NCBI GenBank assembly: GCA_905178155.1
Contig: CAJINV010000015.1
Location: 973,907 to 1,037,906 of the forward strand
Direction of reading: 5' to 3'
Source of the DNA: Amoebophrya sp. A120
Taxonomy: Eukaryota; Protista; Dinoflagellata
DNA: 64,000 bases
Below the pieces are notes generated by a model, which saw only the letters and a program-made list of their open reading frames with translations, had not been told where the DNA came from and searched no databases. The position numbers and the translations under genes were made by a program. This document shows positions 1 to 61,800 of this stretch, piece by piece; position 1 is the stretch's first letter; each line of letters opens with the position of its first letter.

Positions 1-2267
1 ACCGGGTTGTTGCAACAATTCACTCGCCGAAGTCACCAGCGTGTTGATGCCACAAGCTCCCGTCCCGCGCGCGATACGGAAATACCCCTCCTCGCCCCAA
101 TCCGCCCCCCACGAGTTCCGAATTTTCCACCATTTCATCACGACGGAGGTCGTCCCATCTTCAGAAGTAGAACCCATTTTTTCAACCATTTCCGCCACCC
201 TGTCCGCCGCGGCTCGGACGGATCCCCGGGCCATAACGCCCTCGGTCTGCAGCTGCAAGTGGTGCTGCAGCAAGCGCTTGGTTTTTCTCGGGTGCTTCGG
301 AACCATTTCCGCCCCGTCTTGGCCAAAAGCGACGATGGCAACACCGTGATCCAACTGTTCCGGGTTACACATCGAAGTTGTTTTCGGCGTAATGATCCCC
401 CCGGAATACAATCGTGTATGAAAGTGGACAACGAAGAACAACTCTCGAGTGGTCTGGTAAGGACCCCTTCAATTTTTTTGAATGTAGCGATGCAAAATTA
501 CAATAAGCTGGGTTCTATCCCTGGCGTAGTCGCACGTCGTCTTTGTCTTCTTGATGCAGGAGTGCATGCGCAGTAATACAAAAACTTTCTTCGCAATGGA
601 GCAAAAAATGACCCCATGGAGAAGCCGCAATTAGTCTTGAGCGTGCGGTCCTTTCTCTTGCTCGCATGTTGTAGACAAGAACCTAGAGTACTTCTTCTCC
701 ACTGTCGTACTGCAAACCGGCCCCTTTCGCATTGATTCCGGCTGACAAAACCCCGTACTTCATCAATGCCGCCGCGATTTCGTCTTCCACGGTGCTGATG
801 GACAAAAACTGCTGGACGAAAATGCGTTCCCGCGCCGGGTCCTGATGACAGCCGTTTCCATCCTTTCCGATGTAGGGGTAATCGCTCTCCAACTCTAACC
901 CAGTCTTCGTGGAGATCAGCCACTGCGCTGCCTGCGCCTGCAAACCCCCCTGGCACCCGAGGCTACTCGGGTGGTCGCAGTCTATCAGTTGCTGCTCAGA
1001 AAGATCGTACAGCTGCTTCAACTCCAGTAACGCCGCCCCCTCGGCATTCGCCACGGTGCTGAAGGCCCAACAGGAACCGCAGCGGCCCTGGTTTTTCACC
1101 GGGTTCGTGTACCCGTTGTCCAGCCAGGAATAACTGTCGGGTAGAGACATCTTCTTCGGGGAATCTGTCACAGTTCCATCAGTCGCTCGAGTATCCACTG
1201 CGAAGGAAAGTATCGCACTTGTCGCACAATTTGCAATCTATCGTTCGAACACAAATCTCGTTCAATTCATCCCAAGGTCAATCAGTATCAGCATGACAAG
1301 CTCCATATTTGTTCAACGAGCAAGTTTGTGAAGATGCAAGTCGTCGTACTAGTACGATGTACAACTTTTGCAAAACATACCGATCCGCGCCGAGCAAATG
1401 CGGCGCCTTCGTCGAGTGCGCCGCGACCATTTTTTTCAAATCTGCAGTGGCTATGGCGTTCTCAGCGAACTGTTACATCCTCAACTGTTACATGAATTTG
1501 TGATGCAAGAATGGCAAAAGTCAAAGGGGTGACCTTGCGCGCCTAGCATGACAGATTTGGCGCAGATTCTCCGCCTGTTTGGCTCTTCGAGAATTTGTCA
1601 TGCGAAGCAGCTTGATCGTATCAATTCTATTTCTATCTAATTGTGATTTTGCATGACAAATTCATGTAACAGTTGAGAATGTAACGCTTGAGAATGCCAT
1701 AGTGGCTGCGGCTTCGTTTTGATCCGGCGTATTATCTCCCGCGACATTCATGAATTCACGCTCCTCCAAGTCGGCGAGGGGGGTTAAGTGAGTGTGCGGA
1801 ATCCAATTGTCGTCGTTTTCGTTCAATTTTTCCAGTTTTTCGAGGTTTTTCAGGAAGATCTGCTTCCGCTTGGTCTCCTCTTCTAGTGATTCGTAGTGCT
1901 TTTTGTAGTGCTGTTTGAACTCCTGCCACTGGAGTTCGGCGAAATTAGTGTCGTCGGGTGGAGAGACTCTTTCCTTGTGAACGACTTGCTGCAAAAGGGA
2001 ATGATCTCCTCGATGTAGTAGATTTGGATTTCCACTATTCATCATAACCTGCGGCTGAAGATCCCAAGATGCTTCCTCATCGACCAAAAAACTGTTTCTT
2101 GTGGACGATGTTTTGGACATGAGACCAGTAGCACTTACTCCCATCAAGTTCATCTTGGCGGCGAGGGGCCCGGCGAAAAGAGAAGTCGTGGCGGAAAAAA
2201 CTACAGCAGCCGCGGTGCTGACCGCCGCAGGTGAATTTCTGGTTGTGGACGATATTGAGAGAACCAT
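1..2267 (-). CDS. Papain-family (C1A, cathepsin L/F-like) cysteine protease, 4 exons, 3' end runs off window
   Basis: I29 prodomain ([24 protein letters not shown]), catalytic [22 protein letters not shown] and [19 protein letters not shown]; frame restored by removing introners at 417-709, 1192-1379 and 1452-1701. Confidence 0.93.
417..709. mobile_element. Decayed introner
   Basis: Degenerate TIR TATGAAAGTGG / CCACTGTCGTA; direct repeat lost, but removing element +5 nt joins GAGL.. to LYSGGIITP in frame. Confidence 0.6.
1192..1379. mobile_element. Introner family A (degenerate)
   Basis: TATCC..AAAGTATCGCACT / ACTTTTGCAAAACATA; DR TCGAG/CCGAT; joins GAD-RATDG. Confidence 0.8.
1452..1701. 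mobile_element. Introner family B
   Basis: TIR TATGGCGTTCTCA..GTTACATGAATTTG; DR GTGGC; joins NEAAAT-ADL. Confidence 0.9.
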
Positions 2268-2533
2268 CGTGAAAAAAAAACCAAAAAAAGTTCTACATCT
2301 TGTTGGTGTTTTTATTTTGAAAGAAGAGAGAGAAACTAGACCTGGTGGTGTCCGGTGTGTTCCTGATGTAGACGTAAAGTTTACGAATAAAAGATGATGA
2401 TGATTGGTGACAAGAGGAAGCTGCTTGCGTCCTAGAGCTTGCGGTTGAGCCCCCCTGCAAAGGAAATGCATATTAAATGGCGCTCTTTGTCGTGTTGGTT
2501 CAGTAGACCAAACAAGAATGACTTTATCACGGA

Positions 2534-10140: not shown

Positions 10141-10219
10141 CGCAACCGCGATATCTGTGTGTGAGATGTCATCCGATGATGTTCACCACAACCCAGATCT
10201 ATAAATTTGTCACAAACAA

Positions 10220-12102: not shown

Positions 12103-15100
12103 CTATACCACCTTCTTATGCACTCCCGTAATCCCGCCCACCCCCGTTAGCCCGCTTTCGTATTCTTCCCGTTTGAAGTGCAACAGCTCAAACATGTTAT
12201 CCTGTGCAAAAGTATCGCACTCGTACTAATTGCTTTTATGCATTACAAATCTTTATCTCAAGGCAAATCCGCATTACAAATTCTATCTCTCATGCTGAGG
12301 AATATTGTAATGCAATTACTACTAGTACGATGCTTTTGCATTGCATACATGTCCATAGACGCCAGATTTGCAGCCCCAAGATAAACCTCGTTCGGCTTAA
12401 TCATCGGCTCAAATTGCGGAATCGCGGTGGTTGTCGCGCCACGACCATCGGAGTTACGATTCTTATAACCTTCTCAGGTGTTACAATCTCAAACGTTACC
12501 ATAGAGTATGGAAATCTGTGATGCAAGGAATCCATTCTCTAGCCAACTCTCATGGACAGACTGCGCATGACAAGTTCCGGAGTCCCAAACCGCACTACAA
12601 TCTGGCAAAATTTGCATTGCAGAAAGTGGAATACTGTCCGAGTGGTCTGTCATGCTCATCACGCAATACAAGATCCAGATTCTATTGTAACGCTTATGAT
12701 TGTCACCTTTGAGCAGGTCATAGTTCTTCACTTCCTTTTCCTTCCTCTCCTTCTCTGTCATCAACCCGGGAATGCGAAACGTCGGCTTCTTCGCAGCTGC
12801 TCCTGTTCCCCTGACCGCATCTGCGGCGCTCTTCGAAATTTCGTCGCCGTGGTTCATGTGGTCTGCTCGTTTTGCCGGAATCAAATCCCTTAAATCTAAC
12901 GGATCATGGACGATAATGTCGAACTTCAGATACTCCAAGGGGTTCGAGAGCTTTATCCTCCCTGTCCGGCGGAATTGCCTCTGCTCTTCCTCCTCTAACT
13001 CCAACATTTTCGTTAACTCGTCCATCGACTCCATCGAGCTTGTCAGCGCATCGTTCTTCGTGGTTTTTCGTTTCCTATGTTGCAACGCTAAGTAATCGTC
13101 TTCGTCGCCTAAACAGCTATTCATCATCGCTTTCAAAAACGGCATGTCCCGCAGCTCCTGTCGTAACCGCTGCGCTAAGTTCGTTACCCTGCTCACGCCG
13201 CCCGCGAGAACTATGTTCATGAACAACTCCGGGCGGATCGGGTGATTGCTGCAGTTGATGGCGTGACAGGTTAACTCCTGGAGCGACGCTGTCGTTTTCA
13301 AAGCGCCGCCGACCTCCTCTTCGCTGCCCGAAGGTTGGAAGCTGTTTAAGGTTTGTAAATACGCTTGCTCTTCCTTTGTCAGAAGTGTTTTCCCACCGAG
13401 GTTGATCCCGCGAAGCTGCTCAAACATCTGCGGCTTGAACAACGCTTCCAGACATCTGCATCGCTCCGTCTTGATACTGTACACCCGCCCGGTCAGCTTG
13501 CACTCGTAATTTTTCGGCTGACACAACTTCAATTCCGTCATCCCGTTGGTCAGGACAAAACCCATTTTGTGCAGAATCTCCTCCGCGTTCTGTAATTGCC
13601 GCCACTCCTCGCCGAAAAACTCGATGTCGCGCTCCTCTTTGAGGATATGCATTGCAAAAGTATCGCACTCGTATAAATGCATTACAAATTTCCTCAGCAT
13701 GAGAAATAAGATTTGTAATGCAGATTTGACTTGGAAACAAGATTTGTAATGCAAGCCTTGCATTTAAACGAGTACGATACTTTTGCACAGGATAGAGGAA
13801 TTTCAGCAACAACTCCGTGATGTCCTTCCCGCCGTAGTTGTTCCGGTCCACCGTGTGGGGCATCAAATAGCCCTCGTAAATACAGCAGGCGGAGGTGGTC
13901 GTTTCCCCAATGTCGACTAAGCAGCCCGTCTTCTTCCCGTGGGCCACTAAAGTCAAAGTGGGGATCTGGGTGACACAAACCGCAATGGCGTCGAACTTGT
14001 CGAAGAGAACCCCTACCATTCTTTCCCGATCTAGCTTGCTCGTCCAGGGGGCTTCGGTTATGAGAATTGGGAAACGGTTAAGGAGAGGGTGGTCAAAAAG
14101 CTCTTCCTCTTCTTCCTCAGCTGGATTTATTCCTGGGTCTTTGTCTTTATCACCTCCAATCTCGCTCTTATTATCCCCAACACTTGACGCCGTGTCTTTT
14201 GAGCCTTTATTTTTCTTCTTTTTGCCAGTCGCGGTTGGAGGGCCCGCACCGGTGTTTGTAGTTGCCCCATTCGGATCTGATACAGCTGGTCCTGGCTCAG
14301 TTTCGTCGAAGCTTTTGTACACTGCTCTGTGTTCCCGGTACACCATTTTTGGTCTTTTCACCACGTCTAATTCCAGTTTCGGGTTCAAAAACAGCCGCTG
14401 CCACACTTTTTCCAACACTTCCCAATCTTGGACGATGCCATGGCGGATTGGGAAGATCAGCTGCATATCAACTGCAAATATGTCGGGGTCTGGAAGTAGA
14501 ACCCAAGTTTGTCATGCACATTTTGCATCATCCATGACATCTGTGATGTACGCTCTAGCATCACAGATCATTACTTGCGGCCTTCTTGATGCCTCTCCCG
14601 CATGAGAATAAATGCCCTCTCCGCATAGCAAAAACCGGACTCGTCTTCCGGATGATCATGCAAGAATTGCAAGACAAATTTTTTTCGAATACAAACGCAG
14701 CATCACAAGTTCTTGCATCCTTCCAGGCCCAGATCGATATTTGCAATGCATACTGCAGACTGTTCCGCTGCTCGTACGCCTATCCAGTGCAAAAGTATCG
14801 CACTCGTATTGCAGTCATGCATTACAAATCTCTTGCTTAAGGTAAAATAGCATTACAAATATTTCTCATGCTGAGGAAATTTGTGATGCATTTATAAAAT
14901 AGAACTATAGAATTTTTACTCGGATTTTGCGCCCCTATAAACTATAGGGGCCCCTTAGAAAATGAATTCTAGGAGAGAAGCCGTCTAGGCGCCTCCCTTA
15001 AGTGAGCTCCTAGGGGAAGCCTCTAAGGGAACGCACTAAAGAAAACGACTGGCAAGGCGGGGGCCAAAAGTCCTGCGGCACAAAATAAACAAAACCCAGC

Positions 15101-30100: not shown

Positions 30101-30382
30101 GCAAGCCATAGTCCCCTGTGCCGCGATCTTCTTGGAGGTTTTCTTCTTGTTCGTGCGCTGGGAGGTGGTCTTCGCGGAGGTGCCCACGCGCGCGGTGCTG
30201 GTGTGCTGGCCCTTGTTCGTGGTCACCAGCGCAGCGTCCACCGACGTCCCAGTCGTGGCCAACAGGTGCACAACGGTGGCCCCCGCCGCTAGGGAAGAAG
30301 CCGCTCCTCCGAATGCGCGCTTCTTGTACAATTTGCCACCATGAGGGGTGGACTTGGATTCGTTTTCGTTGTAGCTCGCCAT
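21122..30382 (-). CDS. Large Cys-rich repeat protein, copy 1 (internal 2285-bp duplication; lacks a module present in copy 2; may be a pseudogene)
   Basis: Starts MASYNENESK.., hydrophobic AASSLAAGATVVHLLA, repeated C-x-W motifs, ends GGFLGCC*; about 21 introners. Confidence 0.7.
21492..21799. mobile_element. Introner family F
   Basis: TIR TATGGGAGCGTCAGGATTG; DR CTTTG; shared with 36371. Confidence 0.9.
21838..21988. mobile_element. Introner family G
   Basis: TIR TATCCACAGTAAATTTCCCGTACACGTACAAA; DR CCACG/CCACA. Confidence 0.9.
22022..22278. mobile_element. Introner family C (copy-1 specific)
   Basis: DR CAGCT; empty site near 36895. Confidence 0.92.
22305..22557. mobile_element. Introner family C
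   Basis: DR GACAT. Confidence 0.92.
22584..22892. mobile_element. Introner family F (copy-1 specific)
   Basis: DR GACCT; empty site near 37221. Confidence 0.92.
22965..23125. mobile_element. Introner family A
   Basis: DR AGCGG; shared with 37293. Confidence 0.9.
23375..23626. mobile_element. Introner family B
   Basis: DR TGCAC; shared with 41640. Confidence 0.9.
23871..24081. mobile_element. Introner family D (copy-1 specific)
   Basis: TIR TATCCAGGAAA / TTTCTTGGATA; DR GCTTT; empty site near 42007. Confidence 0.92.
24146..24431. mobile_element. Introner family B (degenerate)
   Basis: TATGG...CCCATA; shared with 42068. Confidence 0.75.
24643..24791. mobile_element. Introner family A
   Basis: DR GACAT; shared with 42601. 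Confidence 0.92.
25182..25508. mobile_element. Introner family H
   Basis: TIR TAT..GAAAAAATCCCCCCTCCCCATAT; DR CGGGT. Confidence 0.9.
25687..25835. mobile_element. Introner family A (copy-1 specific)
   Basis: DR AACCC; empty site near 44042. Confidence 0.92.
26310..26588. mobile_element. Introner family B (degenerate)
   Basis: DR CCACT. Confidence 0.85.
26654..26871. mobile_element. Introner family I
   Basis: TIR TATCATACAGAAAAAAGCAAGCAGGGCAT; DR TGCGG/TCCGG. Confidence 0.85.
27052..27357. mobile_element. Introner family J (copy-1 specific)
   Basis: TIR TATTACAGTGAAAAATGCC / GGCATTTTTCATTGTAATA; DR TTGCT/TTGTC. Confidence 0.85.
29789..30110. mobile_element. Introner family K with 8-bp DR (copy-1 specific)
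   Basis: TIR TATAGCGTGCTCAGA / TCTGAGCAAGCCATA; DR GTTTTCTG/GTCCCCTG; empty site GTTTCCTG at 52151. Confidence 0.85.
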
Positions 30383-47300: not shown

Positions 47301-50300
47301 GCATGGTTTTTGGGGGCATTACCTGGGTAATGGTCCGACTTTTGTTGGACAAGATCTAACAGCTTTGACAGTGTAACGTTTGAGAGTCCTCCCGTACCAC
47401 TGCCGAAAGTCGTCGAACAGATTTCCCGTGCACTCTTTCTCTCCCTTCAACGCGAATGCGGTATCATACAGAAAAAAGCAAGCAGGGCATAAGCATATCC
47501 TGATATTTGCAACGCAAAAAATAACTTGTACTTAACACAAAAATCTGTCATGGGCAAGCTCGTCATCGCATGCTGTTCAAGGCACGCAAGAGCGTTCTTT
47601 TTTGTGTGTTTCATCGACAACTTTCTTCGCGGATGGCGATAGCCTGTCCTCCCTCGCCCGTTCGCACGCGAATGCGCACGCTGCCGCTGGCTGGAGGGCC
47701 GACGGCGCCAACACACGACGATAAAGTCAGCCTCTGCGTCCAAGAGGTTGATTTTATGGCCGCGAAATTTCGCGACGATACAATCGACCTGTGCTTCCAG
47801 CAGGGAACAGGAATTCAGGTCTGGAGCCTGAATTCTCGTTACAGTCATGAAAAAGGACCCAAAGCTATTAGTGTACTACTAAGAGAGGAAACATAGTGCA
47901 TAAATAGCTTCTTTTTGGAGACTGCGCTTGGCGCTTGGCGCTTGGCGCTTGGCGCTTGGCGCTTGGCGCTTGGCGCTTGGCGCTTGGCGCTTGGCGCTTG
48001 GCGCTTGGCGCTTGGCGCTTGTCGCGATTCCAGTTGCATCCCCGGTGGTCCTTTACATCATTAGGCTACTATCGCGATGCGCTTCTCCACTGCCCTTGTA
48101 AGTCTTCAGCTTCATCTTCGTTGCTGCTTCCTTTTAAGAAGTAGCCTTCTGACCAACTAGTTTTATTCTGTTGATCTGCTGTCCCTTTTGCATGACCAAG
48201 AGCCCAGCTTGCTCTACCTCCCAATGTATTATGTGGAGTCACTTCCTTTTTTGTGTGTTTCATCTACAACTTTCTTTTGCCTTTTAAAATATCATGCCCT
48301 GCCTGTCTTTTTCTGTGGGATATCCGGCAGCGCAAATCGGATTGCCAATATTTTCGTCGAACAGCAGCTGTCCCGACCAACGGCAGAAATTGTCTCCAGC
48401 GGTACTGTTCCACTGCCACAGGCAACTGACAGGATTATCAGTGTGGCTTAAGGCGTCCAACTGGCAGGTGTCCTTCGTTGTCTGATTGTTACAGTTATGC
48501 ACTGCAAAAGTATCGTACTCGTATAAATGCATTACAAATTCCCTCAGCATAAAAGATGGAATTTGTAATACGGATTTAGATTAGGAGGGAAATTTGTAAT
48601 GCATGATCGCGATTACTCCGAGTACGATACTTTTGCACAGGATAGCAGTACGCTCTCATGAAGGAGAAGGACGCCGGGTCGGCTATTGCGAGGAAAAATC
48701 CCCCCTCCCCATACCAAAACGGGACACTTCTGAAAATTTGCGATGCTGATTAGAGACCGCAAATCGTCTCTGTATTGCAAGAAGGCAAATCCAAAAACCC
48801 CGCCGCGTTCTGCAGGCAGTTTGTAGTGCTGTATTGCCTACGGAGGGTATGCCTGCCTTGCTAGGCGCCTACACCAAAACGCCCCTCCTCCGGCTTTGTA
48901 TCTGCCCCTCAGTCTTCTACTGCAAGACAAAGCCGATTTGTGTACACAAATCCCGCATCACAGATTTCCATTTCGATATGGGGAGGGAGGATTTTTCCTT
49001 TGATATCGGCGCCAGCTCCTTCACCTTTGGCCGGTGCACTTCCACCCACGAGACCATCGTAGTCGCTGGGCCTTCCCGGCATGCAATGGTACTCGTACCC
49101 GCCAATCCAATTGCCTTGTTCGTCTTGCTTCACCTCGTTGTACTCCCAATGCCAGGTGCAGTCGTGGTCCGTGTTCTTGCCGCAAGTTTCTTCGGTGTCG
49201 TTTTCCGCGCAAATCTCCGTCACCCGGCCTTCGTTCACAACACACTTCTTCATCTCCCCGGGCTTGTCACTCTTGAAAATGCACCCGTCAATCTTGTTGC
49301 ATGTAGCCGCGTCCCCGCCTCCTGCTTCACACGGGTCCGTCGTCGCGCCCCCACCAACGCCCCCGAAGGCTACCACGATTCCGTACTTCTCGGGCGGAGC
49401 GTGGCGGGACTCGCACTTACCCGAGGCACCACCTTTGCTGGTACAATCGAACTGCCTGTACATCCAGGGATCGATTCGCAACCACTGCGCCGCCTCCTCG
49501 AGCGCATTTTCCGTGCACTTTTTTGTGAACCCTGCTGCGAGCTCGCAAAGCCGATCTCCCAGCTTTTTGTCGAACAGCAGCTGTCCCGACCAAGTGCAAT
49601 AGTTTTCTTTTCCACCCACACTGCCGTCCCACATCATGACGCAACTGGCACCAGCGCTAGGGCCCGCCGCATGCACTGCACTCTGACCTTGAGGCAGGGT
49701 CAAGGTGCACGTTTTTTGCCCCTGCTTTTCACAGTACTCTTGTTCCATGGAAGTCTGGTCGGGGGGCGAGACCTCCCCTCCGCGCAAGCCGTATAGAGGG
49801 ATCCACTTCGGTAACCGCGACATGCAACTGATTTCGGTCGAGTCTTTGTCCGCGAGGTTGCCGGTAAAATTCGGATCTGCAGGGTACGCGCGGCAAGATA
49901 ACCCATCCAGAGCATCCATGCAGGCCTGTTCTCCAATCTGGCCTATTGTGAGGAAAAATTCCCCCGCCCCAAATCAAAACGAGCAATCGCATGCTGGATC
50001 TGCGTAACGCATAAATCACACTTATCTTGCGGGAGGGAACTGCAGGCCCATGCCAAGCCTGAGTAGAAGGGTTTCGGTCTAGGCGCTTTGCATGAAAAAC
50101 GTCCGCGCTGTATTAGGCCCAGCAGCACCATAGCAAACCGCTCGCATAATGTTGCGGCGGAACCTCCTGTGGCGTTGCCTTCTTGCAAGAACGACGTGGT
50201 CTGTGGTCACAAATCAGCAACACAAATTTTCGGAAACGTGCCTCCTTGTCAATATGACGAGGGGGGATTTTTCCTCACAATATGGCCGGTCTGCTTCGTG

Positions 50301-52419
50301 CCGTTCGTGCCGAATTTCGCGCATTCAAATTGCGCGTCTGCCACTTCGTTTGTTTCGAAGCATTTTTCGACGTAAACTGCCGGATATACACCCCACCAGG
50401 ACGGCCACTTGTATTCGCCCCACGCGTATCCTAAGTAAATAATTTCCCGTACACGTACAAATGCGGAGGTCTCTGCATGACAAATTTGGGCTTCCGATCC
50501 GCTTCGATCCTAGTTTAGCATGACAAGTGTGCTGGCAGCGCTCCAAATTGGTGAAATTTGTGAAGATGCATCTTGTACATGTACGAGTGGAAATTCGTAT
50601 TGCATAACGCGCATTTCGGGGTCATGGCCGTGTTCGGGAGAATGATTTTGGTGCACTTCGCCTCCTCCTCGATCGTGCTGCAGTCAGGCGAGCTGCCCTC
50701 TATCGTAAGGAAACATCCCCCCTCTCCATATCAAAACACAGAAAGCTTCTGATGCTGGACTTCCGTACGCAAATCGGATCTCTCTTGCAGTAGAGGAATG
50801 CGAGCATATGCCGCGCCTGAGTGCAGAGCTTCTGACGTGGGCGCCCAGCATCGCAAATGTCTAAACAGTAGCCCAAGCAGCATCACAAACCGTCCGCGTA
50901 AGTAATGCGGCGGAGACTGTAGAGTTGCATTCTTGCAAGACAAAAAGATTTTTGTGGTCACAAATGAGCCAAAAATTTTCTGAGGGGTACCTTTTTGATA
51001 TGGGGAGGGGGATTTTTCCTTACGATACTGCCCCCTGCTCCCGAGCCGGGTGGAACAATGACGGGACCTCGGGTTTGGACGTACGGCTCCTCCTCGGGCA
51101 GCCGGGCTTGGCAAAGCACCACATCCGATTCCTCGACGGAGGTTTTGGCTGAATCTTCCAAGTACGCTTGGCAATCGTCTTCCACACGCGTTTCTGTGCA
51201 TTGCTCCACCGCCTTTTGTCCCATACCTCCACCCAGTTTCGGGCACGCCTCGGCAGCGTTTTCCAACGCCGTCACCTCGAAGCACTCCGGCTGCATTTGA
51301 GTAGTAGAAAAGACCCATCCAAACTTCGGCTTTTTGCCTTTTCCGTCCCACTGGCACATCCGGTTCAGATGTTGGTCTGTGATCGCGTGGCAGCGTTTTT
51401 CCGCATCCGCCACGTCCTCCCCGTCCTTCACGATCACGCTGTCGCACGCCGTGGGCTGCTTCCACTCGCATTTTCCGTTGGACCACTGACAGACGCCTTT
51501 CACGCGCTGCTCTATGGAGTTCTCAAACGTTACATTCCCAACTGTTACATGAATTTGCAGTGCAGAGCAGCAAAAGTGGAAGGGAGGGTCTTGCAACTCT
51601 AGCATCACAAATTTTGCACAGATTTCCATGCTGTTCCGTCCTTCGCGAATTTGTCATGCGCAGCCGCTTGGTCGTGTGGTTCTGGTTGCTTATGGCAATT
51701 TTGCATGACAAATCATGTAACAGTTGAAAATGTAACGTTTGAGAACGCCATATGCTCCGTGTGGTCGTTGCATGGCTTTTCTTCCACGATTGCCTCGCAA
51801 GTTTTGTCGAGGTCAATATCAAATGCAAATATGTCTGGGTCTGGAAGAATGCAAGTTTGTCATGCTTGTCTCACATGACTCTTAAATTTGTCATGCACAT
51901 TACCCAAGACCCCCATTTTTCTGTCATGCAGAAACGCAGTTTGTCATGCAGAGTAGGCAACACCAAGAAGCTCAGAAACTTGTCAACATGCTGAGCCAGC
52001 ACTTGTAGCCTCCTCATGATACGCCGCACAGCATTACAAGTTTCCAGACCCAGACATTTTTACAGTTGATAGTCAATGAAGATGTGCATTTTGCTCTTTC
52101 CGCCAGCGCGCAAATTCTTCTTCTCCTCGTGCTCCACCAGCACACGGTGAGTTTCCTGTGCCGCGATCTTCTTGGAGGTTTTCTTCTTCTTCGTGCGCTG
52201 GGAGGTTGTCTTCGCGGAGGTGCCGACGCGCGCGGTGCTGTGCTGGCCCTTCGTGGTCACCAGCGCAGCGTCCACCGACGTCCCGATGGCCAGCAGGTGC
52301 ACAACGGTGGCCCCCGCCGCGAGAGAAGAAGCCGCTCCACCGAGGACTGCGCGCTTCTTGTTGCAGTTGTTGCCACCATGGGGGGTGGACTTGGATTCGT
52401 TTTCGTTGTAGCTCGCCAT
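35356..52419 (-). CDS. Large Cys-rich repeat protein, copy 2 (about 26 interruptions)
   Basis: MASYNENESK.. start, GGFLGCC* end, Cys-rich exons such as 49006-49943 and 51028-51512; colinear with copy 1. Confidence 0.75.
35401..35736. mobile_element. Introner family H (copy-2 specific)
   Basis: H-type TIR; DR TCCTG/TCCTC. Confidence 0.87.
35974..36299. mobile_element. Introner family H (copy-2 specific)
   Basis: DR TCATG; empty site at 21421. Confidence 0.9.
36371..36678. mobile_element. Introner family F
   Basis: DR CTTTG; left end reads CAT instead of TAT. Confidence 0.9.
36717..36866. mobile_element. Introner family A at the site where copy 1 has family G
   Basis: A-type TIR; DR CCACG. 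Confidence 0.9.
36921..37199. mobile_element. Introner family C
   Basis: DR GACAT. Confidence 0.9.
37293..37431. mobile_element. Introner family A
   Basis: DR AGCGG. Confidence 0.9.
37572..41525. mobile_element. 3954-bp non-autonomous foldback TIR element
   Basis: TIR TATGAAGGTACGTCCGTCAGT..; about 830-bp diverged inverted arms; inner arrays of GGGC(A/G)TGAGATTT; perfect TSD GCCAGTTC; no transposase ORF recognised. Confidence 0.93.
41640..41875. mobile_element. Introner family B
   Basis: DR TGCAC. Confidence 0.9.
42068..42395. mobile_element. Introner family B (degenerate)
   Basis: DR GACAG/AACAG. Confidence 0.75.
42601..42789. mobile_element. Introner family A
   Basis: DR GACAT. Confidence 0.88.
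43201..43524. mobile_element. Introner family H
   Basis: DR CGGGT. Confidence 0.9.
43602..43940. mobile_element. Introner family B with internal insertion (copy-2 specific)
   Basis: DR CCTCG; empty site near 25581. Confidence 0.88.
44111..44371. mobile_element. Introner family C (copy-2 specific)
   Basis: DR TTTAG/CTTAG; empty site near 25900. Confidence 0.88.
44404..44668. mobile_element. Introner family C (copy-2 specific)
   Basis: DR TGATC. Confidence 0.9.
44768..45045. mobile_element. Introner family C (copy-2 specific)
   Basis: DR TGACA. Confidence 0.9.
45244..45392. mobile_element. Introner family A (copy-2 specific)
   Basis: DR CGGAA. Confidence 0.9.
45441..45756. mobile_element. 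Introner family F (copy-2 specific)
   Basis: DR ACAGT/ACAAT. Confidence 0.9.
45804..47396. mobile_element. Introner family B with triplicated right end and two filler insertions
   Basis: Right junction ..CCCGTA|CCACTGCCGAAA at 46069, 46828 and 47396. Confidence 0.8.
47462..48322. mobile_element. Introner family I with a ~620-bp insertion
   Basis: Same termini as 26654-26871; insertion flanked by a 31-bp duplication. Confidence 0.85.
47924..48021. repeat. (GCGCTTG)14 heptamer tandem repeat
   Basis: Seen directly. Confidence 0.95.
48496..48644. mobile_element. Introner family A (copy-2 specific)
   Basis: DR ACAGT/GCAGT. Confidence 0.9.
48684..49005. mobile_element. Introner family H
   Basis: DR TCGGC. 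Confidence 0.9.
49944..50282. mobile_element. Introner family H
   Basis: DR TGGCC. Confidence 0.9.
50427..50606. mobile_element. Introner family G
   Basis: DR ACGCG. Confidence 0.85.
50701..51027. mobile_element. Introner family H with 8-bp DR
   Basis: TATCGTAAGGAAA / TTTCCTTACGATA; DR CTGCCCTC/CTGCCCCC. Confidence 0.88.
51513..51752. mobile_element. Introner family B
   Basis: DR TGCTC. Confidence 0.92.
51817..52071. mobile_element. Introner family C
   Basis: DR GTCAA. Confidence 0.92.
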
Positions 52420-54707
52420 GGTTTTCTTCTCGTCTACTTGGCGCAATAAACTTGAGTAGTTTATTATTCCGGGTGGTTTAATTTCGTTGCAAAACACCGA
52501 TTTGAGCAAGCCTCTCAGGGTATGAAAGGTTGTTGTTAAGAGAAACAAGTTTTGAAAATTAGTTCGAGCTAATTTCAGTGAAAGGAAAACGTAGAAAGAA
52601 CTTCGTCTCGAAAGTGGTGGTTCCGAAACACGTGTTTTCCTGTCATTTAGGTTTAGAAAACATTTTAGTGGAACAAGATAGAAGACAACGATTTTCGGAA
52701 TCAATCACGGAATTCGAGTACAAACGAAAAGCACAACGAAAAGCAAAAAGAGAAGCACCGAACAAAAACTTTACCGTCTTCATGTTTCTTGCTGTACAAC
52801 CTGCAGTACGACGACTATTCTAGTACGTTTTCCGGACGAGGCAAAGAACGAACTACGATACAACTGGAGGACGAAAACGCGGTCGGACGCAAAGGACTTA
52901 ATATTCCTGAACGAAAGTAAACCGAGTCACAACTTCATCTAGGTAGACATGAAGTGGAAGTGCAAGCCAAGTGCTGCAATTATCGCGTACTTAAATCATC
53001 TACCGATATTACGCGCCGTGCACAACTGACGGACACGAAAGTAAGCCGCGTGTAAGTTCTACGTACGTATACCGATGCGTTTGCTTTTCTGCAGCCACTT
53101 CCTATACCTATCTACGACTTGTTTTTCTTCACGACATTAACGACGAACCGCCCTTGCAGTAGTTTCCTTGAGCTTTCTTCTTGGACGAACACGAAGGAAA
53201 AGAGTACGTTAAAAACTCAGAACAGCGGTCTTCTCGGAGGCCAGAGGCTGTAACTCTGTTCAAAATAGTGCAGCAGCAGGAAAGCATGTCAGGTGCGTTG
53301 GAACCGCACTGCGCTTCTCTTTCACCTTGTTCAGGGATGTGGCAATCGTCCGCATTGCTGAGATTGCTGCTGGGATAATTCAAGAAGAGCCGTGGTGTAG
53401 TAGGAGTTTAGAATTAGTAGATCAGGGTTTCTGTTTACTACATGTCCATGATACACCAGTGCAATTAATTTTACTTAAACCCGAAAGAAACTCAAACACA
53501 ATGACCCAAGGTCTGACTTTGCCAACCGGGCAGCAGCACGCGCAGCCAGAATCGAAATTGGTCCAGGTAATGAAGTAAAACATGCACTTGAAAGTCGTGA
53601 TACAAGAAAAACGATCCTCCAACGCTGCAATATCTTCACTTTTTCTTTTTCTTTCCTTTTCCCTTCCCGCTTTTCGGCGAGTCGTCGCCGCTGGAAATAT
53701 ATGCCCGGCAAAAGTTCTTGTAGTCCCATATTTGTACTTCTGATCTATCATCAGCACGAGAGCCCCTAGGATATCATCAATGAGTTTTTTTTCACGTGCT
53801 TGCTTCAGAGACACAGGGTCTCGCTCAGCAGCGTTTCAATCGCAAGTGCGTCTTTGCCTTTCTCTGACTCGTTGCAAAAAGCTCTTCTTTTAGACATGCA
53901 TTTCGTCTTGCGGCATGGGGGGCCAACATGCTATAAACAAAGAAGTGTCGGACGCTTGTACAAAAACATGCATCTAGCCTACTGTAAGAACAACAACTTT
54001 TGCAAAGCATACCTTCCCCCTTTTCTTTCCCTTGCCTTTCTTCCCTTTCTTCCCCTTCTTGCCTTTTTTCCCTTTCTTGCCTTTTTTTCCCTTTCCTTTG
54101 TCTGACGAATCGTCTTCGGTTTTCTGCTATGCAGTGCAAATTCAATACATGTGGATTTTTTGGGTCATGCAATAGCTTTTCTTCCGCGAAAATTATCGTT
54201 TGCTTCATCTATGCTGATGGCTGTTGGTTGTGAATATTGTGCATGCAAAAGTGATATCCTGCAAAATTCATTTTCATACAGTGTATCAACATGACAGCTC
54301 TGTACTATTTCGCTATCAAAAGAGGACCCGAATCAGGTGTTGTGAAGATGAATTTGCAACGCGTATCTCCGTGGGTCCCACGCTCGCGGCGGTTTCGGTT
54401 TCCTCTTCGCTATGGCGCTCTCAAACCTTAGTACATTGATCGCCCGTACACGATTTTCATTTCTTGCTACACCAGAATGATAAAAGTAGAAGGGGGGGAG
54501 CCGAAAAGCAACAGCTACAGCTTGTGCTTACAGCTTGCGCGGCTTGCATTACAGATTGTCACGGACATCAATTCCCATACTATTGAAAATTTACCGCGTC
54601 ATCTCAAACTTGTGACACACAGTAACTTGATTGTGTGAATCTGGAAGATCGTGGTCCTCCTGGTAGTGATTTTGCATGATAACGAGAAATTATGCAACAG
54701 CGATCAA

Positions 54708-55670
54708 TCATGTAAACTCCTTGAGAGTGCCATACTCGCCCTCACTGCTTTCGGACTCGATCTCATTGTCCTTGTTGAACTTGTCCTCCAAGTCTTTGCG
54801 TTTTTTCCGCAGCAGGTGGTACCGATACCCGAGACAGGACGACGCCCCCGCAGCCAATCCAAGAGCGATCGTATGGTGTTCTCAAACGTTACATCTTCAA
54901 CTGTTACACGAAGCTGTAATGCAAGAATGGCAAAAGCCAAAGGGGGAAGATTGCAAAAATTGCATTACAAATCTCGCGCAGATTTAGGTGGTGTTTAGCC
55001 CTTCGCAAATTTGTCATGCGAAGCAGCTTGATCTTGTGGATGATGATGGTAGTTTTGCATGACAAATTCATGTAACACTTGAGAATGTAACGTTTGAGAA
55101 CTCCATAGATCGAAGAGACCACCTCGAACACGGAGGGCGTCATCTTCATCGCCTTCTCCTTCGCTTTCAGCACCGCGGACTCCTCCCGTAGCGGCCGCCA
55201 GAACTGCTGTGCCTTGGACTCGCGAATGTTCGGGCAGGACACTTTATCCTGTGCAAAAGTATCGTACTTGTATTGCAATCCTGAATTGCAATTTTTTTTC
55301 CTAAGGTAAATCCGAATTTACAAATTTTATTTCTCATGCTGAGGAAATTTGTAACTAATGCATTCATACGCCGGGTACGATACTTTTGCAATGCATATAC
55401 TTCAATCACGTAGCCGGGGTCTTTCAGGGGGTCGGGAATGGAAATGAAAGAGGATGCTGTACATCGCTTGTGCTGGTGTACATTAGCTGCTGTGGATGAC
55501 TTTGTCATGCTGAGAAACGATGGGAGTAGCCCGTTGTGATGCCCGAAAATGCTGCAAGTTTGCTGCTCTGTCGTCGAGCTTTTGTCATGGTCTTCAGCGA
55601 AAAGCTGGGCCAACCGGATTCCCGCCCCATCGGTGGAAGACGGACTACAGCTGAAGGCGTGGTGAGGCAT
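54708..55670 (-). CDS. Hypothetical single-pass membrane protein (5' end uncertain)
   Basis: Spliced ..GYVIEV-SCPNIRES..VFEVVSSI-ALGLAAGASSCLGYRYHLLRKKRK..EFT*; hydrophobic segment followed by basic residues. Confidence 0.55.
54872..55107. mobile_element. Introner family B
   Basis: DR GATCG. Confidence 0.92.
55245..55397. mobile_element. Introner family A
   Basis: DR CACTT/TACTT. Confidence 0.9.
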
Positions 55671-56514
55671 GCTGTGTGCGTCTGGAGCGTATGTAGTTTC
55701 TTCTGCTGTTTCGAAGTACTGGTGGCGAGGTTTGTTTAATGCGTCCTCTTCAACAAGAACCGTGCTACGAATATGTGATTTTCATTTTTGTAGAACAGGT
55801 GCTGATCAACAAAACAGATTCATTTTCAACCGACAAATGTATCGCCACGATCTGGTCGTGCTGGAAAGACTGCAAGACCACAGACCACGACTACTTGTGC
55901 ATTTATTACTTGCACAAGATCATGACAACGACACTGACGACACCGACCGAGATCACGACCCAAGACGAAACGAGGACTCTGCTTCTTGTACTTTTTGCAC
56001 CGAGGTTGTGAAGAGCTCGCCAGATGAAACGAAATTTTCGCAGAATTTATTTCACGGTGAGTTTGGTTTCACCCAGAAAGACGACGATGACGATTTAGTA
56101 CTGCAGCTGAAACGGTACGGCCCTTACGATTGTGACGGACCATTTCTTCCTTCCAGCGATACTTTGTCGGGACCTAAACATGCCGAGACGACAATGATCT
56201 TCTATTCAAACCGAAATAGTCCATAATAGTGGCTCGACCCATGAGGACCGCAACCATCTCAACAGTGCTTGTACTACTAGAACCGCGCATAATATGCGTT
56301 CTGGCGTCTGTCCTCGTGTGAAAATGTAGCACACATCCAGCAGCTACCCAGGCAGTCATTTGCTTTTTCTTAGGTTCGTTTGGAAAAGATGAAAATCTGA
56401 CAGCTTCACAAACTACAACTTGAATGTTCACACAACCACTCGCCGGCATGGCAAGTCTGAATTTCAAGACTTTCCCGTGCCTCATCCAGAAGTATCATCA
56501 TCTTCAAGCAGCTG

Positions 56515-58836
56515 TCATGACGTCGCAGCTGTGGTTGCAGCTGCCACAGCAGCAGGAGCTTCTGTTTGCATGCTGTTCGTCGCTTTCATTGCAGTTTCTT
56601 GCGCGCCACCCACGCCCTCAATCGCCTCCACTCTTCCCTTGATTCTCTCCACAATTTCCCCCATGCGCACGACCAATGCCGGGTCCTTTATTTTCGTGCC
56701 CCGCTCTCCGGCCAAGCCGACGTCCTTGTCTAAGGGGATCGAACCGAGAAATTCCAAATCGTAGTCCTTGCACATCTTCTTCACCCCCTCGGAGGAAACG
56801 CCGAGAAAACCCTGCATGTTTTCGATCACACCGATGATCTCCACGCCGGTTCGCTTGCAAAAATTCACTTCCTTCCGCACGTCGGCTAAAGCGACTTCTT
56901 GGTATGGATTGCAAAAATGTCTGGGTCTGGAAGATTGCAACTTGTCACGCTGAAACCGAATCATGCAAAAGTCTGTGTTGCATGACTGCCGAAAGCTGCC
57001 CACTTTCGACCAAGTTGGGAGGGAGTTTCTCATGCAGGATAGGCATGACAGAGACCTCACGGACTCTGTCATGCTAGGTCCCGCATTCCAGACCTCATGG
57101 GTCATGGAAAACCTGCATGACAAGTTTACACCCTTCCAGACCCAGACGTTTTTGCATTTGATACTTGGGGCGAAGTGACAATCACGGCGCCGGTGATTTT
57201 TGCGTCGTTTTATCCTGTGCAAAAGTATCGCACTCGTATTGCAATCATGCATTACAAATCCCTGTGGTAAGGTAAATCCGCATCACAAATTTTATTTCTC
57301 ATGCTGAGGAAATTTGTAATGCATTTATACGAGTACGATACTTTTGCAGTTCATACGTTTAGATACCCGACGATCGCCATGTGTTCGTCGCTGGTACCGG
57401 GTGGGGTGTCGACGAAGAGGTAATCTAGTTTTCCCCAGGTCACGTCGGTCAGAAACTGCCGAATCAAACCGTTTTTCCGTATCCTGTGCAAAAGTATCGC
57501 ACTCGTAGTAATTGCAAATATGCATGACAAATCTTTTTCTGAAGCCAAATCCGCATTGCAAATTTTATTTCTCACGCTGAGGAAATTTGTAATGCATTTA
57601 TACGAGTACGATACTTTTGCACAGCATATTCCGCGGCCCGCGCCAAATGATCGCGTCGTCCTCGTTCGGCAGCATAAAACCGATCGACATCACCGCCAAA
57701 TGCTCATTCAAGTACACTATGAATTGCAAAAATGTCTGGCTCTGGAAGATTGCAACTTGTCATGCTAAATCTGCAGCATGCAAAAATCTGTGTTGCATGA
57801 TTGCCAAAAGTCGTCCAGTTTTGACCAAGTCGGGAGGGAGTTTCTCATGCAGGATAGGCATTAGAAAGGTCTCGCAGAATCTGTCATGCTAGGCCCTGCA
57901 TTCCAGACCTCATGGATCATGGAAAAGCAGCATGACAAATCGCGCATTCTTCCAGACCCAGAGACTTTTGCATTTGATATACACCGGCGACCATCCCGCG
58001 TTCGATTGGTGGACCTCATGCCCCTTCAACCCGAGCATGGTGGGCAAACTCGGGCCGCAGATGTCAATGTCCAACAGCCCCACGTCGGCGTTCGGTTCAA
58101 CGTGTTCTACTGTGTGGTCTTCTTCTTGCGGATTTCGATTTACAATCACTTTATCCGGCGCCGAAGAGAATGCGAAGGATAATTGGCAGGAGACTGTCGA
58201 TTTCCCCACGCCACCCTTCCCCGACAGCACTAAAATCTTCCGCTTCACCTCTTTCAAAACTTCTGCGACCTGCGCGACGGCGGGATCGGCTTTTTTCGCC
58301 TCGCCGCTCGCACAAGCGCCCTGGTTCGGGCAGCCGGCGCAACCGGCGGCCTTCCCGGCTTGTTCGGAATCCACCCCCACGCAGTCCTGGTTCGCATTGT
58401 CCGGAATGTGGATCTTGCTTTCTTGGTCGTCGTTGTTGTGCTCCGCTTCTGCTGATTCGGCGCTTTTAGAAGATGAAGATGTTGTATTCTGTGGTCCATC
58501 ACGATCACCTGCTCCTCCAGCTTCTGCAGTTCTTTTCGAACCCGTTTTATTTTTCTTGTTCTCGAACTCGATTACATCGCTGTCTGATTCCTCTTCTGAA
58601 GACGACGACGTCGCAACATTCCCCTCTCTAGCAGCAGCCACAACGAGCTTCACGCCGAACCCCTGCTCTGCGACATGGGAGATTTTCTCGAGCAAGTATT
58701 TCTTCCCCTTTTTCCATTTTTTTGGGTAATAACTCGCGTAGGCCGCGGTGGCTGCGAAGGCGAGGGTGGTGGTGGTAAGAAACGCGGCGGTCGTGGCCGT
58801 AGAGGAGGAGGAGGGGGAAGATTTTGTGGTCGCCAT
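56515..58836 (-). CDS. NBP35: Cytosolic Fe-S cluster assembly factor NBP35 (Mrp/NBP35 P-loop NTPase), 5 exons
   Basis: C-x13-C-x2-C-x5-C ferredoxin-like motif, [57 protein letters not shown]. Confidence 0.95.
56903..57163. mobile_element. Introner family C
   Basis: DR CTTGG; splits TSPQ-EVAL. Confidence 0.93.
57211..57355. mobile_element. Introner family A
   Basis: DR CGTTT. Confidence 0.93.
57480..57628. mobile_element. Introner family A
   Basis: DR TTCCG; splits WRGPR-KNG. Confidence 0.93.
57718..57979. mobile_element. Introner family C
   Basis: DR TACAC; splits WSPVY-LNE. Confidence 0.93.
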
Positions 58837-59610
58837 GGTGTTTTTTTGTTTTCCAGTGCAGTTCTTGTGGGGATAAAACTAACTAGTTAGGCAGGAAGCG
58901 GAATGAAAATTCTAGGTGGTGCTAGAAGTAGTGAACATCATTGAACCTAGGAAAGACCGTGCGAGAAGTTGGTGAGGTCCAATGCATTTTACAAGCTACA
59001 ATGAGGGGAGAACTGGTTACGTAAAATGGTTATTGACACAGCATCACGCAATGGAGTATGGTATCCTTACAACATCTTTGGACTGCACCTGGTCTGGATC
59101 GTTCGCAGATCGTAGTACCAATTCCAATTTACTGTCTGATCTCGTCAAGGTACTAGATCGTCCGCTTTCAAGTTCAATCATCTCTGAGTGTTGGTGTTGT
59201 TCCCAGCACCTACCACAAAAAATACCCCGTCCTTCACACTCACTAGAGATCCGATTCATCGCGACGATCGTCTTAGTTTTTATGTTTTCACACACAGCGC
59301 CTGGAAAGAATCATCTCGAATGTACAACAGACTCACGTAAGGTTCCAAGGATCTTCCTTTCCATTCAACTTGCAATATCCTAGTAGAAGAAGTCGCTGAT
59401 CATCTCGTGGCCTAGAAAGAACTTCCTCGACGTTCCGCGTACGAAGCATTGTGCCGAAGGTGCTGCTCCTGCTCATGGGCACATTTTTTATGTCCTACGA
59501 CGACAGTACTTGCAGTCATGATGTGCATGTGCGCTGTGGTTTCTCGTTGATGTCTTTTTTAACGTTGAGGTTGACCCGATGAAAACATCTTGCGTGTATA
59601 CTAGCCGTGC

Positions 59611-61800
59611 TCACAAACCCGCCACGCAGATCAAATACCACTGCCGGAAAAAGGAATGTTTTACGTAGTAGTCTTCGCGTTTCCGTCCTATCCTCAGACA
59701 GTTATCCCGGAAATCGGACCCGACCCGCACGCCTTGATACATGTTCAGTAGCAGCTCTTCGTACTGGTTCTGGATACTCTGATATGCGAGAAAAAAATTG
59801 CGAAGGTGTAACCCTGTAATGCAGAACATGCAACAGAGTTACGCCTGTCATGCCAGACAGCCACGAAGTCCTCTTTGCATGTGTGTGCTTTCCCTTACAG
59901 TTACGAGCCACGCATAACAGGTTTACTTAGTCATGTAGAGCAAATTTGTGATGCTGTCAGCCAAAGATGGTTACACTAGCACAGCTTTTTTCTTGGATAT
60001 CTGGCACGCTTTCCGCAACGCTTGCTTCAACTCCATTTGCTCGTTGACCAACTGATCGATATGAATTGCAAATATGTCTGGGTCTGGGAGATTGCGAGAT
60101 TTGTCATGCTAATCTGGCATGACTCTAAACTCTGTATTGCGTGCCCGCGAAGAGGTCCTCTTGTCTGTCATGCAAAAACGCAGTTTCTCATGCGGAGTAC
60201 GCAACTCTGACCAACGGAAAAACTTGTCATGCTGGGAAGCGCATTACAGTGTGCTCAATATTCGTCCCTTCCTTGCATCACAAGTTTCCAGACCCAGACG
60301 TTTTTGCATTTGATAATCGATCAACTGCGACAACTCCTCGGTTTCCGTTTCGTAGAAGTGTCGGATCATGGAAATCGATTGCGCTTTCTGCGTGGACTCC
60401 TTGTAGTTTTTGTCGATCAACTTGTAGTTCAGCTGCACTTCCTGGTTTTGCTGCTGCAAGGTTGTGTTTTGCTCCTTCAGTTTCTTGTTCTCCGTATCGA
60501 GGGAAAAGACCTGGGTTCGAAGTTTCTCCACCTGTTTCCGGAGCTGCTTGTAGTCCGCTGCAATAGAAGTAGAACCTCCACCTGTACCATAGTACGTGCC
60601 GTCGTTGGCGGAAAAGCTTCCTGCTCGGGTTTTCCCCTGCTTCGTAAAACTACTGTTCGACCGGCTACTAGGGGAGAAGCTTTTCTTCCTTGGGATGGGT
60701 AAGGCAGACGCCGGTGGGGGTCCTCTGGGAGCTGATGCACCGCTACTTAATGCAGCACCACCTCCGGTTGTACTTGTACCTCCTGGCGGTTTATTTGTCG
60801 TCCCACCTGATGCAGCGCCACGACCGCTCCCCGGTGCATTATTCCCCTGCTTCGGTGGAAGTCCTGCTGACGAGTTATTTGCTGCAGCCCCAGCACCCCC
60901 TGGTGGGTCCCGTGAGAACAGAAATGCCGTTTGCTTCGAAGAGCTGGGTCGCGGGTGCTGGTCCGCGAACGAAAACCCCGAAGCTGCTGCTGCTTGTGGT
61001 CCTCCCGAATAAGTAGAAGACGAAACGGGCTCGAGTCTTTGCCGGGACGACGAGCTCGTTTCCTCGCGATACAACCTCTCGTGGATCGGAATGCGCGACG
61101 AAGAGCTGTAGCTATTACTGTAGCCACCACCATATGCATTGCAAAAGCATCGTATTAGTATAAATTGCAATACAAATTGGAGGCTCAGCATTACAAATTT
61201 AATTTGTAAAGCGGATTTCCCTCAACCCCTAGATTTGTAATGCATAATTGCAATTAGTACGAGCACGATGCCTTTGCACTGGATACACCACGACGAAGCG
61301 GCGAATTGGCGGACCGGGAACGCTCGCGGGCGATACCTTGATTGATGAAAAAGAGTCGTGTAGCTGCTCATCAAGTGAAGTAGAGAACATTCCAGTGCCA
61401 GCAAGCGGCACGATAATGAATCTGTGTGTAGTGGTTCCAAGATGAACGTCACTTGTTCTGTATGATCGGCGAAGTATCAAGAACATTTCCGCAACACAAA
61501 CGCGGCCAACTACAGCGTCATGTAAAAAACAGAACCAACCTGCAATCGATGCCGTTCCTTGCTCTAAATCCTCCAGCAGGTTCTGAATCTTCGACAGTTT
61601 TTCCTCCTGTTGGTCTAGATCCGTTTGCAGCCCGTCCCCGTTTTCGGCGAGTGTGTGCAAAGTGTTCTGCACGGAATCCACGTGAGAAGCAGAGCCAGCT
61701 TGTTGTGCGCGGTGCGGGTAGGAATGTGGTCCAGCTCGACCCCGGGAGGAGGAAGAACTGGAAGCGGTGCTGTGATGTTGTGCGTCAATTTGACGAGCTT
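59611..61800 (-). CDS. Hypothetical low-complexity / coiled-coil protein (start not identified)
   Basis: Frame continuous across three introners and one predicted GT-AG intron (61337-61539); coiled coil YKQLRKQVEKLRTQV..; no in-frame ATG found. Confidence 0.65.
59783..59999. mobile_element. Introner family D
   Basis: DR TCTGA/TCTGG. Confidence 0.85.
60060..60315. mobile_element. Introner family C
   Basis: DR ATCGA. Confidence 0.92.
61133..61285. mobile_element. Introner family A
   Basis: DR CACCA. Confidence 0.88.

Follow-up and report, generated by a model that had tools for sequence, protein, structure and literature searches.

The DNA analyzed here is a stretch of 64,000 nucleotides from Amoebophrya sp. 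A120 (contig CAJINV010000015.1, positions 973,907 to 1,037,906 of the forward strand), called the window below. Its host genes are interrupted by introners, and the ends of these elements, their removal from RNA and the position of the cuts were investigated. The genes and elements are listed in Table 1 by window position. One exon of host gene A matched a deposited Amoebophrya sp. A120 protein at 100% identity.

Table 1. Host genes and catalogued elements of the window (DR, direct repeat; register, nucleotides removed upstream of TAT)
Positions	Identity	Ends and DR	Register	Removal and related copies
1..2300	papain-family protease gene (Peptidase_C1 + I29), minus strand			extends beyond window
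12106..16663	actin-related protein gene, minus strand			741-aa frame once 5 elements removed
21125..30418	host gene A, Cys-rich protein, minus strand			1324-aa frame once 21 elements removed
35359..52458	host gene B, paralogue of A (exons 91% alike), minus strand			1509-aa frame once 26 elements removed
53639..55781	Lys-rich protein gene, minus strand			285-aa frame; junctions from contigs
56518..58878	NBP35-like P-loop NTPase gene, minus strand			508-aa frame once 4 elements removed
59614..61367	coiled-coil protein gene, minus strand			371-aa frame once 3 elements removed
417..709	single family	TAT..GTA; DR decayed, 1/5 match	0-1	
1192..1379		DR with 2 mismatches	0-4	
1452..1701	family D			
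12198..12347	family A, + orientation			
12464..12722	D-type ends	DR 1 mismatch		
13646..13794	family A, - orientation			empty site in gene fragment near 20185
14466..14752	family B			
14781..16245	family A ends			encloses nested 1.3-kb insert
21492..21799	family E			
21838..21988	minor family			paralogue site 36717, different family there
22022..22278	family B			paralogue empty
22305..22557	family B			site shared with 36921, interior differs
22584..22892	family E			paralogue empty
22965..23125	family A			
23375..23626	family D			
23871..24081	minor family			paralogue empty
24146..24431		8-bp DR (6/8)	0-1	removed with 5 nt, +1 codon
24643..24791	family A			
25182..25508	family C			
25687..25835	family A			paralogue empty
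26310..26588	family D	TAT..GTA		
26654..26871	minor family	DR mismatch at position 4	0-1	
27052..27357	C-type ends	DR 2 mismatches	0-3	
27467..27793				copy of 25182 in tandem duplicate
27972..28120				copy of 25687 in tandem duplicate
28595..28873				copy of 26310 in tandem duplicate
28939..29156				copy of 26654 in tandem duplicate
29337..29642				copy of 27052 in tandem duplicate
29789..30110		8-bp DR (5/8)	1-3	removed with 5 nt; paralogue with 8-bp empty site
31625..31985	minor family	DR decayed		paralogue of 53700
32102..32331	minor family	TAT..GTA		
35401..35736	family C	DR 1 mismatch		
35974..36299	family C			paralogue empty
36371..36678	family E	CAT..ATA		
36717..36866	family A			
36921..37199	family B			
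37293..37431	family A			
37572..41525	3954 bp, foldback-like, 1.6-kb arms 78% alike	TAT..ATA; perfect 8-bp DR		
41640..41875	family D			
42068..42395		5-bp DR		same insertion as 24146
42601..42789	family A			
43201..43524	family C			
43602..43940	D-type ends	sole GT..AG reader among 64 in 1+4 register		
44111..44371	family B	DR mismatch at position 5		paralogue empty
44404..44668	family B			paralogue empty
44768..45045	family B			paralogue empty
45244..45392	family A			paralogue empty
45441..45756	family E, - orientation			paralogue empty
45804..47396	paralogue of 26310, 1593 bp with nested DNA			absent from deposited protein
47462..48322	paralogue of 26654, swollen to 861 bp		0-1	absent from deposited protein
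48496..48644	family A, - orientation		1-5	contig joint skips 154
48684..49005	family C, + orientation			contig joint skips 327
49944..50282	family C, - orientation			contig joint skips 344
50427..50606	minor family			contig joint skips 185
50701..51027	family C	8-bp DR (7/8)	0-1	contig joint skips 332 = element+5
51513..51752	family D			contig joint skips 245
51817..52071	family B			contig joint skips 260
53700..54011		DR decayed	1+4 exactly	joint 53695>54013, unambiguous; unspliced contigs too
54128..54365		TAT..GTA		unspliced contig only (2 differences, may be paralogue)
54411..54734	single family			partly retained in contig lacking 54872 and 55245
54872..55107	family D			joint skips 241, X4 only
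55245..55397	family A, + orientation		1-5	joint skips 158
56903..57163	family B			in NBP35
57211..57355	family A			in NBP35
57480..57628	family A			in NBP35; long stem fold, z -7.1
57718..57979	family B			in NBP35
59783..59999	minor family	DR 1 mismatch		
60060..60315	family B			
61133..61285	family A, - orientation			

Termini and direct repeats of the elements

The window was scanned without regard to terminal letters for terminal inverted repeats (TIRs) matching at 13/20 positions or more and flanked by perfect direct repeats (DRs) of at least 5 bp. The scan gave 163 matches, 40 of them with TAT..ATA ends. Each of five dinucleotide shuffles gave 32–44 matches, with zero TAT..ATA ends and zero matches above 15/20. 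A curated catalogue, made from relaxed scans and reading by eye and selected partly on DRs, contained 69 elements, or 64 once the five in a 2285-bp tandem duplicate were removed. An earlier reading of the sequence alone had proposed about 60 elements, which was of the right order and a little low. The elements occupy 24.0 kb of the window. The 64 termini were TAT..ATA (58), TAT..GTA (5) and CAT..ATA (1), and the TAT...ATA ends that the sequence-only reading had seen across families were thus borne out. In the terminal logo, TAT was followed by A at element positions 11–13 in 45, 44 and 57 of 63 elements. The ungapped TIR had a median of about 28 nt and a maximum of 57. Clustering gave 14 groups by ends and 16–22 by whole sequence, which corresponds to about 14–16 families, with 47 elements in five families, all five of which were present in both orientations. 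The opposed family A pair at 12198 and 13646, pointed out earlier, was confirmed.

The 5-bp DR was perfect in 41 of the 64 elements and had one mismatch in 14, so that 55/64 carried at most one mismatch. A DR-blind scan gave 52 matches, comprising 45 catalogued elements and 7 internal sub-repeats. Among these matches, 5-bp DRs were perfect in 32 cases and had one mismatch in 7; two 8-bp DRs had one mismatch, and none of the matches had a perfect DR of 4, 6, 7 or 9 bp. DR length therefore had a main peak at 5 and a minor peak at 8. Four elements carried 8-bp DRs (24146, 29789, 37572 and 50701). The earlier description of 5-bp, sometimes 8-bp, repeats held, except that several DRs were decayed.

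Further loci were fetched from one assembly record set with the family A pattern (550 kb, L001–L148; not a random sample). In these outside loci, 277 of 311 matches with a perfect 5-bp DR had TAT..ATA ends (277 distinct), and a single TAT..ATA element had a perfect 8-bp DR. Among 63 one-mismatch DRs there, the mismatch fell at the outer positions in 35, above expectation (p 0.014). The family A pattern had zero matches in viral contigs.

For 14 window elements, a paralogue had an empty site with a single target copy, which identifies the DR as a genuine target duplication. TIRs, a target duplication, many copies and no coding capacity are features of miniature inverted-repeat transposable elements (MITEs), and the elements showed all four, in agreement with the MITE-like insertions proposed earlier.

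Removal of the element with five nucleotides

Deletion of each element with 5 nt gave open frames of 741, 1324, 1509, 508 and 371 aa and completed the papain domain. With removal lengths other than 2 modulo 3, the frames of NBP35, the actin-related gene and both paralogues A and B became much shorter. This comparison was weaker for the papain and coiled-coil genes, did not discriminate between removal lengths in the Lys-rich gene, and left no long frame in the truncated Lys-rich copy at 31.4–32.4 kb. In the outside loci, removal of element+5 fitted 69 of 81 elements with a confident frame. The NBP35 motifs WRGPRKNG and TSPQEVAL were regained, as the sequence-only reading had stated. It had also named actin as a host; the frame was indeed restored, and the protein is a 741-aa actin-related protein.

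Removal was visible in assembled contigs of one sample (X4–X6), whose RNA status is a guess. Between 48330 and 56100, 10 of the 12 catalogued elements were skipped, each by a joint whose length was precisely element+5. Of the 15 joint rows, the remaining five came only from the sparse run X7 and joined ends of different elements. One contig lacked all four NBP35 elements, with 837 nt missing (817+20). Junction peptides occurred verbatim in deposited proteins P0001–P0003 for 37 of 68 elements, all with 5 nt removed; one of the 37 matched through a paralogue's protein only, and the remainder of the 68 lie outside these proteins. The swollen elements of 861 and 1593 bp were also missing from the deposited protein, and deletion of 37572–41525 with 5 nt kept gene B in frame. 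Two raw RNA runs with the same species label, X8 and X9, had 98 and 5 reads, nearly all partial within elements, and were uninformative on splicing. The element and 5 nt are removed from RNA, as the check for transcript removal proposed earlier had anticipated. The unit is element+5 whatever the length or identity of the DR, and not the element plus one repeat as first supposed.

Both orientations were removed in families A (48496 vs 55245) and C (48684 vs 49944 and 50701), in line with the earlier claim that removal is independent of element orientation. The further claim that removal cannot use strand-specific signals was too strong: each TIR supplies TAT/ATA either way, and the cut is asymmetric.

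Removal from DNA in some cells, in the manner of internal eliminated sequences (IESs), could produce similar joints, since X4–X6 are not recorded as RNA. The run X1 is DNA-like and repeat-rich, and repeat joints dominate its joint table, which leaves room for rare element-free DNA. However, X1 contigs crossed element ends with 0–1 differences at a depth of 42–48, as in unique flanking DNA, so the elements are retained in bulk DNA, from which ciliate-type IESs are eliminated. X7, though sparse, showed 0/10 exon joints. The depth of X4–X6 was zero in the intergenic bin 52750–53009, and one X4 contig had lost two elements and kept part of a third, like a part-processed transcript. Removal from DNA is thus highly improbable.

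Use of ordinary GT/GC-AG sites near the element ends was also considered. A TTTTGCA tract lies at each family A end, and 5 of 63 elements are compatible with GT/GC..AG in one register or another. The observed joints nevertheless equalled element+5, and in the register fitted below only 1 of 64 elements read GT..AG; the donor and acceptor of U2-type introns were absent from the rest. None of the ten joints seen was an ordinary GT/GC-AG junction. For these ten junctions this explanation is refuted, and its overall probability is negligible; the absence of a fixed GT/AG had been noted correctly.

Cut register and candidate enzyme

A perfect DR hides the cut position, so the register can be read only at mismatched DRs. 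In contig joints, the number of upstream nucleotides removed was exactly 1 at 53700, 0–1 at 50701, and 1–5 at 48496 and 55245. Deposited proteins gave 0–1 at 417, 24146 and 26654/47462, 0–3 at 27052 and 1–3 at 29789. Register 1 was the sole value that fitted all nine sites, with a probability of about 0.003 if registers were random, and a tenth mismatched site, 1192, allowed 0–4. The sole protein match for outside locus L028 starts downstream of the junction and leaves its register unconstrained. The mirror register was ruled out at 7 of the 9 sites. The intron along the transcript is therefore likely N-TAT...ATA-NNNN, cut 1 nt before TAT and 4 nt after ATA.

A junction set by the direct repeats, sliding anywhere within them, is implied by both the sequence-only reading and Farhat et al. 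2021, and it would also fit the 41 of 64 elements with perfect DRs, where every register is allowed. The incomplete removal of the decayed-DR element 53700, in a weakly covered gene, is in its favor too. Against it, DR identity was dispensable: 417 and 53700, with 1/5 bases matching, still lost exactly 5 nt. The 8-bp-DR elements 24146, 29789 and 50701 (3/3 testable) lost 5 nt rather than 8 and left an extra codon, and the high-depth contig from which 50701 is missing also lacks perfect-DR elements. The DR-set junction is largely refuted and very unlikely.

The base composition at the fixed register was investigated in 63 elements. Intron position +1 was G22 A18 C14 T9 in the window and A19 G15 T15 C14 in the outside loci; the last two bases were AG in 5/63 and 4/63. 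Selection towards G at +1 was rejected on these counts. Position +2 was T in 63/63 window elements. A purine was the first 3'-exon base in 39/63, compared with an exon background of 56%, and in 34/63 in the outside loci.

It is fairly probable that A120 introners are non-autonomous DNA transposons that land in exons and are cut at this fixed 1+4 register, likely measured by a stem and likely by a relaxed spliceosome. The element would insert with a mostly 5-bp target duplication. Its TIR ends would pair in the pre-mRNA as a predicted stem that joins both ends, and the stem base would act as the ruler for the two cuts before a relaxed spliceosome carried out excision and joining. Since 1+4 = 5, excision leaves no trace of a 5-bp duplication, and an 8-bp duplication adds a codon. 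If 5 nt are always removed, duplications of 4, 6, 7 or 9 bp would shift the frame and be purged from exons. Either orientation works because each end carries the same TAT. Predicted stems were strong in either orientation (z -7.1 and -8.0). With this register, U falls at +2 and A at +3, the pattern of GUA, which points to a spliceosome. In Table S4 of PMC7789003, the nine top non-canonical A120 motifs all have N-T starts, and strain A25 has only TT starts with repeats that begin TTA. The same paper reports U2, U4, U5, U6 and most spliceosome proteins in A120, and U1 snRNA was not found. Within the 1+4 model, a modified spliceosome has an even chance of being the enzyme, a protein nuclease-ligase somewhat less than that, and anything else is improbable.

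Several points weigh against the stem-measured spliceosomal reading. The register is pinned by one junction alone (53700), where unspliced contigs also occur (depth 2.9–4.9 vs 6.3–8.6 spliced), and 54128 and 54411 had no removal joint in X4–X6 contigs. These contigs are not reads and come from a single sample of guessed RNA status; transcript alignments underlie the deposited proteins, which may share the same RNA. All window host genes are on the minus strand, and the dependence on transcript direction is inferred. At 29789, the paralogue empty site requires fewer exonic changes under the mirror register, which is nevertheless excluded there by the deposited protein. A total absence of preference for G+1 and for AG is not known from other spliceosomes. 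No lariat, circle or enzyme was seen in the available contigs and reads, and the Table S4 motifs depend on aligner placement of ambiguous junctions.

The same ruler might belong instead to a dedicated non-spliceosomal protein system that recognizes the TAT/ATA stem base and releases circles or linear RNA. In its favor are the unbiased bases at +1, at the intron's final two positions and at the first exon position, together with the strong predicted stems and the undetected U1. Euglena offers an analogue with a paired triplet and fixed asymmetric spacers, for which the authors favor non-spliceosomal proteins (PMC12501133). On the other side, +2U and +3A recur in both strains. Third-base variants fell 7 on the 5' arm vs 2 on the 3' arm (20 variants, 321 outside elements), small numbers in which L051 was taken as 5' from its reading frame and several strand calls were weak. 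Three further independent third-base events in the window were all 5', and this apparent lopsidedness is opposite to the G-U tolerance predicted for a stem. A dedicated protein system of this kind is possible and on balance doubtful.

A bolder proposal, advanced only tentatively and rather unlikely, is an A120-specific RNA cut-and-join machine. It would treat any TAT...ATA stem as an intron, measured by 1 and 4 bases. As a general antidote, it would allow coding DNA to receive transposons from many families, up to 4 kb in length and with footprints of 5 or 8 bp, and its origin would be independent of Euglena.

If the fixed N-TAT...ATA-NNNN rule is true, many reported dinucleotide classes collapse into one code and tens of thousands of introns could be annotated exactly. 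The rule predicts which target duplications survive in exons (5 and 8, not 4, 6, 7 or 9) and shows where lariats or circles should be sought. Removal at a fixed distance would explain how elements land harmlessly inside genes.

Mobilization, rearrangement and known systems

The motif GCAT[CGT]ACA was common to all large families, with 136 copies in 14.7 kb of elements and 9 in 40 kb outside, an enrichment of about 40-fold across unrelated families. Of 292 outside elements, 282 had at least one copy. The motif lies in either orientation, commonly some 50 nt from an element end, and is likely a putative transposase-binding site that the families have in common. A role as fixed branch point was rejected, given its varied distances and both orientations. 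No autonomous transposase element was found in the window; the outside loci gave 5 long DR-flanked candidates, and neither of the 2 inspected was recognizable as a transposase element. L051 was rejected as an autonomous element, being a chance pairing of two small elements. At L078:476–2934, a perfect 5-bp DR flanks a family B element, into which 2.2 kb of DNA carrying a stop-free frame of 415 aa is nested. A candidate autonomous form would be a TAT...ATA element with an integrase-like open reading frame (ORF) and GCATNACA arrays.

Foldback transposons have very long modular inverted arms, and 37572–41525 has such arms, with arrays of about 46-bp period built from a related motif. Unrelated DNA is nested in three elements (14890–16220, 46080–47340 and 47600–48240). 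It includes short tandem repeats and another TAT-starting end near 46868, and neither the rest of the window nor the outside loci contained a long match to it.

Genes A and B share ten insertion sites, two of which hold different elements. At 21838–21988 and 36717–36866, the elements are of different families and 60% alike. At 22305–22557 and 36921–37199, the ends match and the interiors are 56% alike, and the B copy is 79% like 44404. The comparison suggests replacement by gene conversion or insertion hot spots. The DR of one insertion measures 8 bp in gene A (24146–24431) and 5 bp in gene B (42068–42395), and family C has both lengths (8-bp at 50701–51027). One transposase may therefore duplicate variable lengths, with selection then filtering them.

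The tandem duplicate at 25102–29670 (2285 bp, 99.6% identical, five element copies) may be an assembly artefact because deposited protein P0001 has a single copy. An actin-related gene fragment at 19740–20490 lacks element 13646 and adjoins half of an element, which ends at 19824. At 32379–32700, a broken Lys-rich gene contains a truncated copy of element 54411, and 55439–55770, in the 5' part of the Lys-rich host gene, is a possible degenerate element covered by unspliced contigs only. In a patchwork of segmental duplications, 17–21 kb resembles 32.8–35.4 kb. Positions 3399–11056 hold four long intron-free, element-free ORFs on the minus strand (818, 812, 446 and 278 aa); three were scanned and had no Pfam match. 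Repeat copies near 3030–3170 and 11300–11440 bracket this block, which is possibly one mobile block.

The TAT...ATA grammar is already published, since Farhat et al. 2021 (PMC7789003) describe A120 introners with 8–20-nt inverted repeats starting TAT + 7 nt + AAA and 3–5-nt DRs. Their RNA-seq supports removal, and no transposase was found in A120. The window elements agree in strain, ends, DRs, multiple families, transcript removal and lack of an internal transposase, and the earlier link to Amoebophrya introners was correct. In the legends of Fig. 3 and S23 of that paper, the splice sites vary in position with respect to the hairpin, and the border is given as unknown. In the window, by contrast, a single register fits, matching DRs are not required, elements with an 8-bp DR leave an extra codon, and an internal motif is shared. 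No published statement of a fixed A120 register was found in a search that left subscription journals and theses outside, and the figures of PMC7789003 (3, S19–S25) may show it. The elements are thus known, and the fixed splice register is probably new.

Canonical-ended introners of algae and dinoflagellates (Gozashti et al. 2022, PMC9860276) are likewise transposons with TIRs and target site duplications (TSDs) that become introns and sometimes add codons. They carry or co-opt GT/GC/GA and AG, whereas A120 elements need neither. MITEs and integrase-related (Ginger-like) transposons share the TIRs, target duplication and non-coding nature, but no autonomous partner was found here in the window or outside loci. 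PMC12130899 describes A120 introners with TIRs and long terminal repeat (LTR)-related ORFs, and an A120 element without Ginger termini and TSDs. The non-canonical introns of Fritillaria borealis (PMC11282704; 10.1101/2025.08.15.670264) are also MITE-derived, with TIRs, target duplication and non-GT/AG ends. Their TIR supplies the terminal dinucleotides (AG-AC, AG-AT), with a modified U2 spliceosome reported there, whereas the outermost intron bases in A120 are arbitrary exon-derived sequence.

Euglena nonconventional introns resemble the A120 elements in a paired triplet at fixed unequal distances, a TIR/MITE origin and DRs whose sliding hides the register. By knock-ins, Nomura et al. 2025 (PMC12501133) proved a CAG/CTG pair with 3- and 5–6-nt spacers; circles are reported for these introns, and non-spliceosomal factors are favored. 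The A120 elements have TAT/ATA with 1 and 4 nt instead: N1-TAT / ATA-N4 replaces the euglenid N3-CDG / CH'G-N5-6 signature, and the euglenid purine rule at the first 3'-exon base does not apply. If the A120 rule is true, an alveolate joins Euglena as the second lineage with a stem-and-spacer splicing code.

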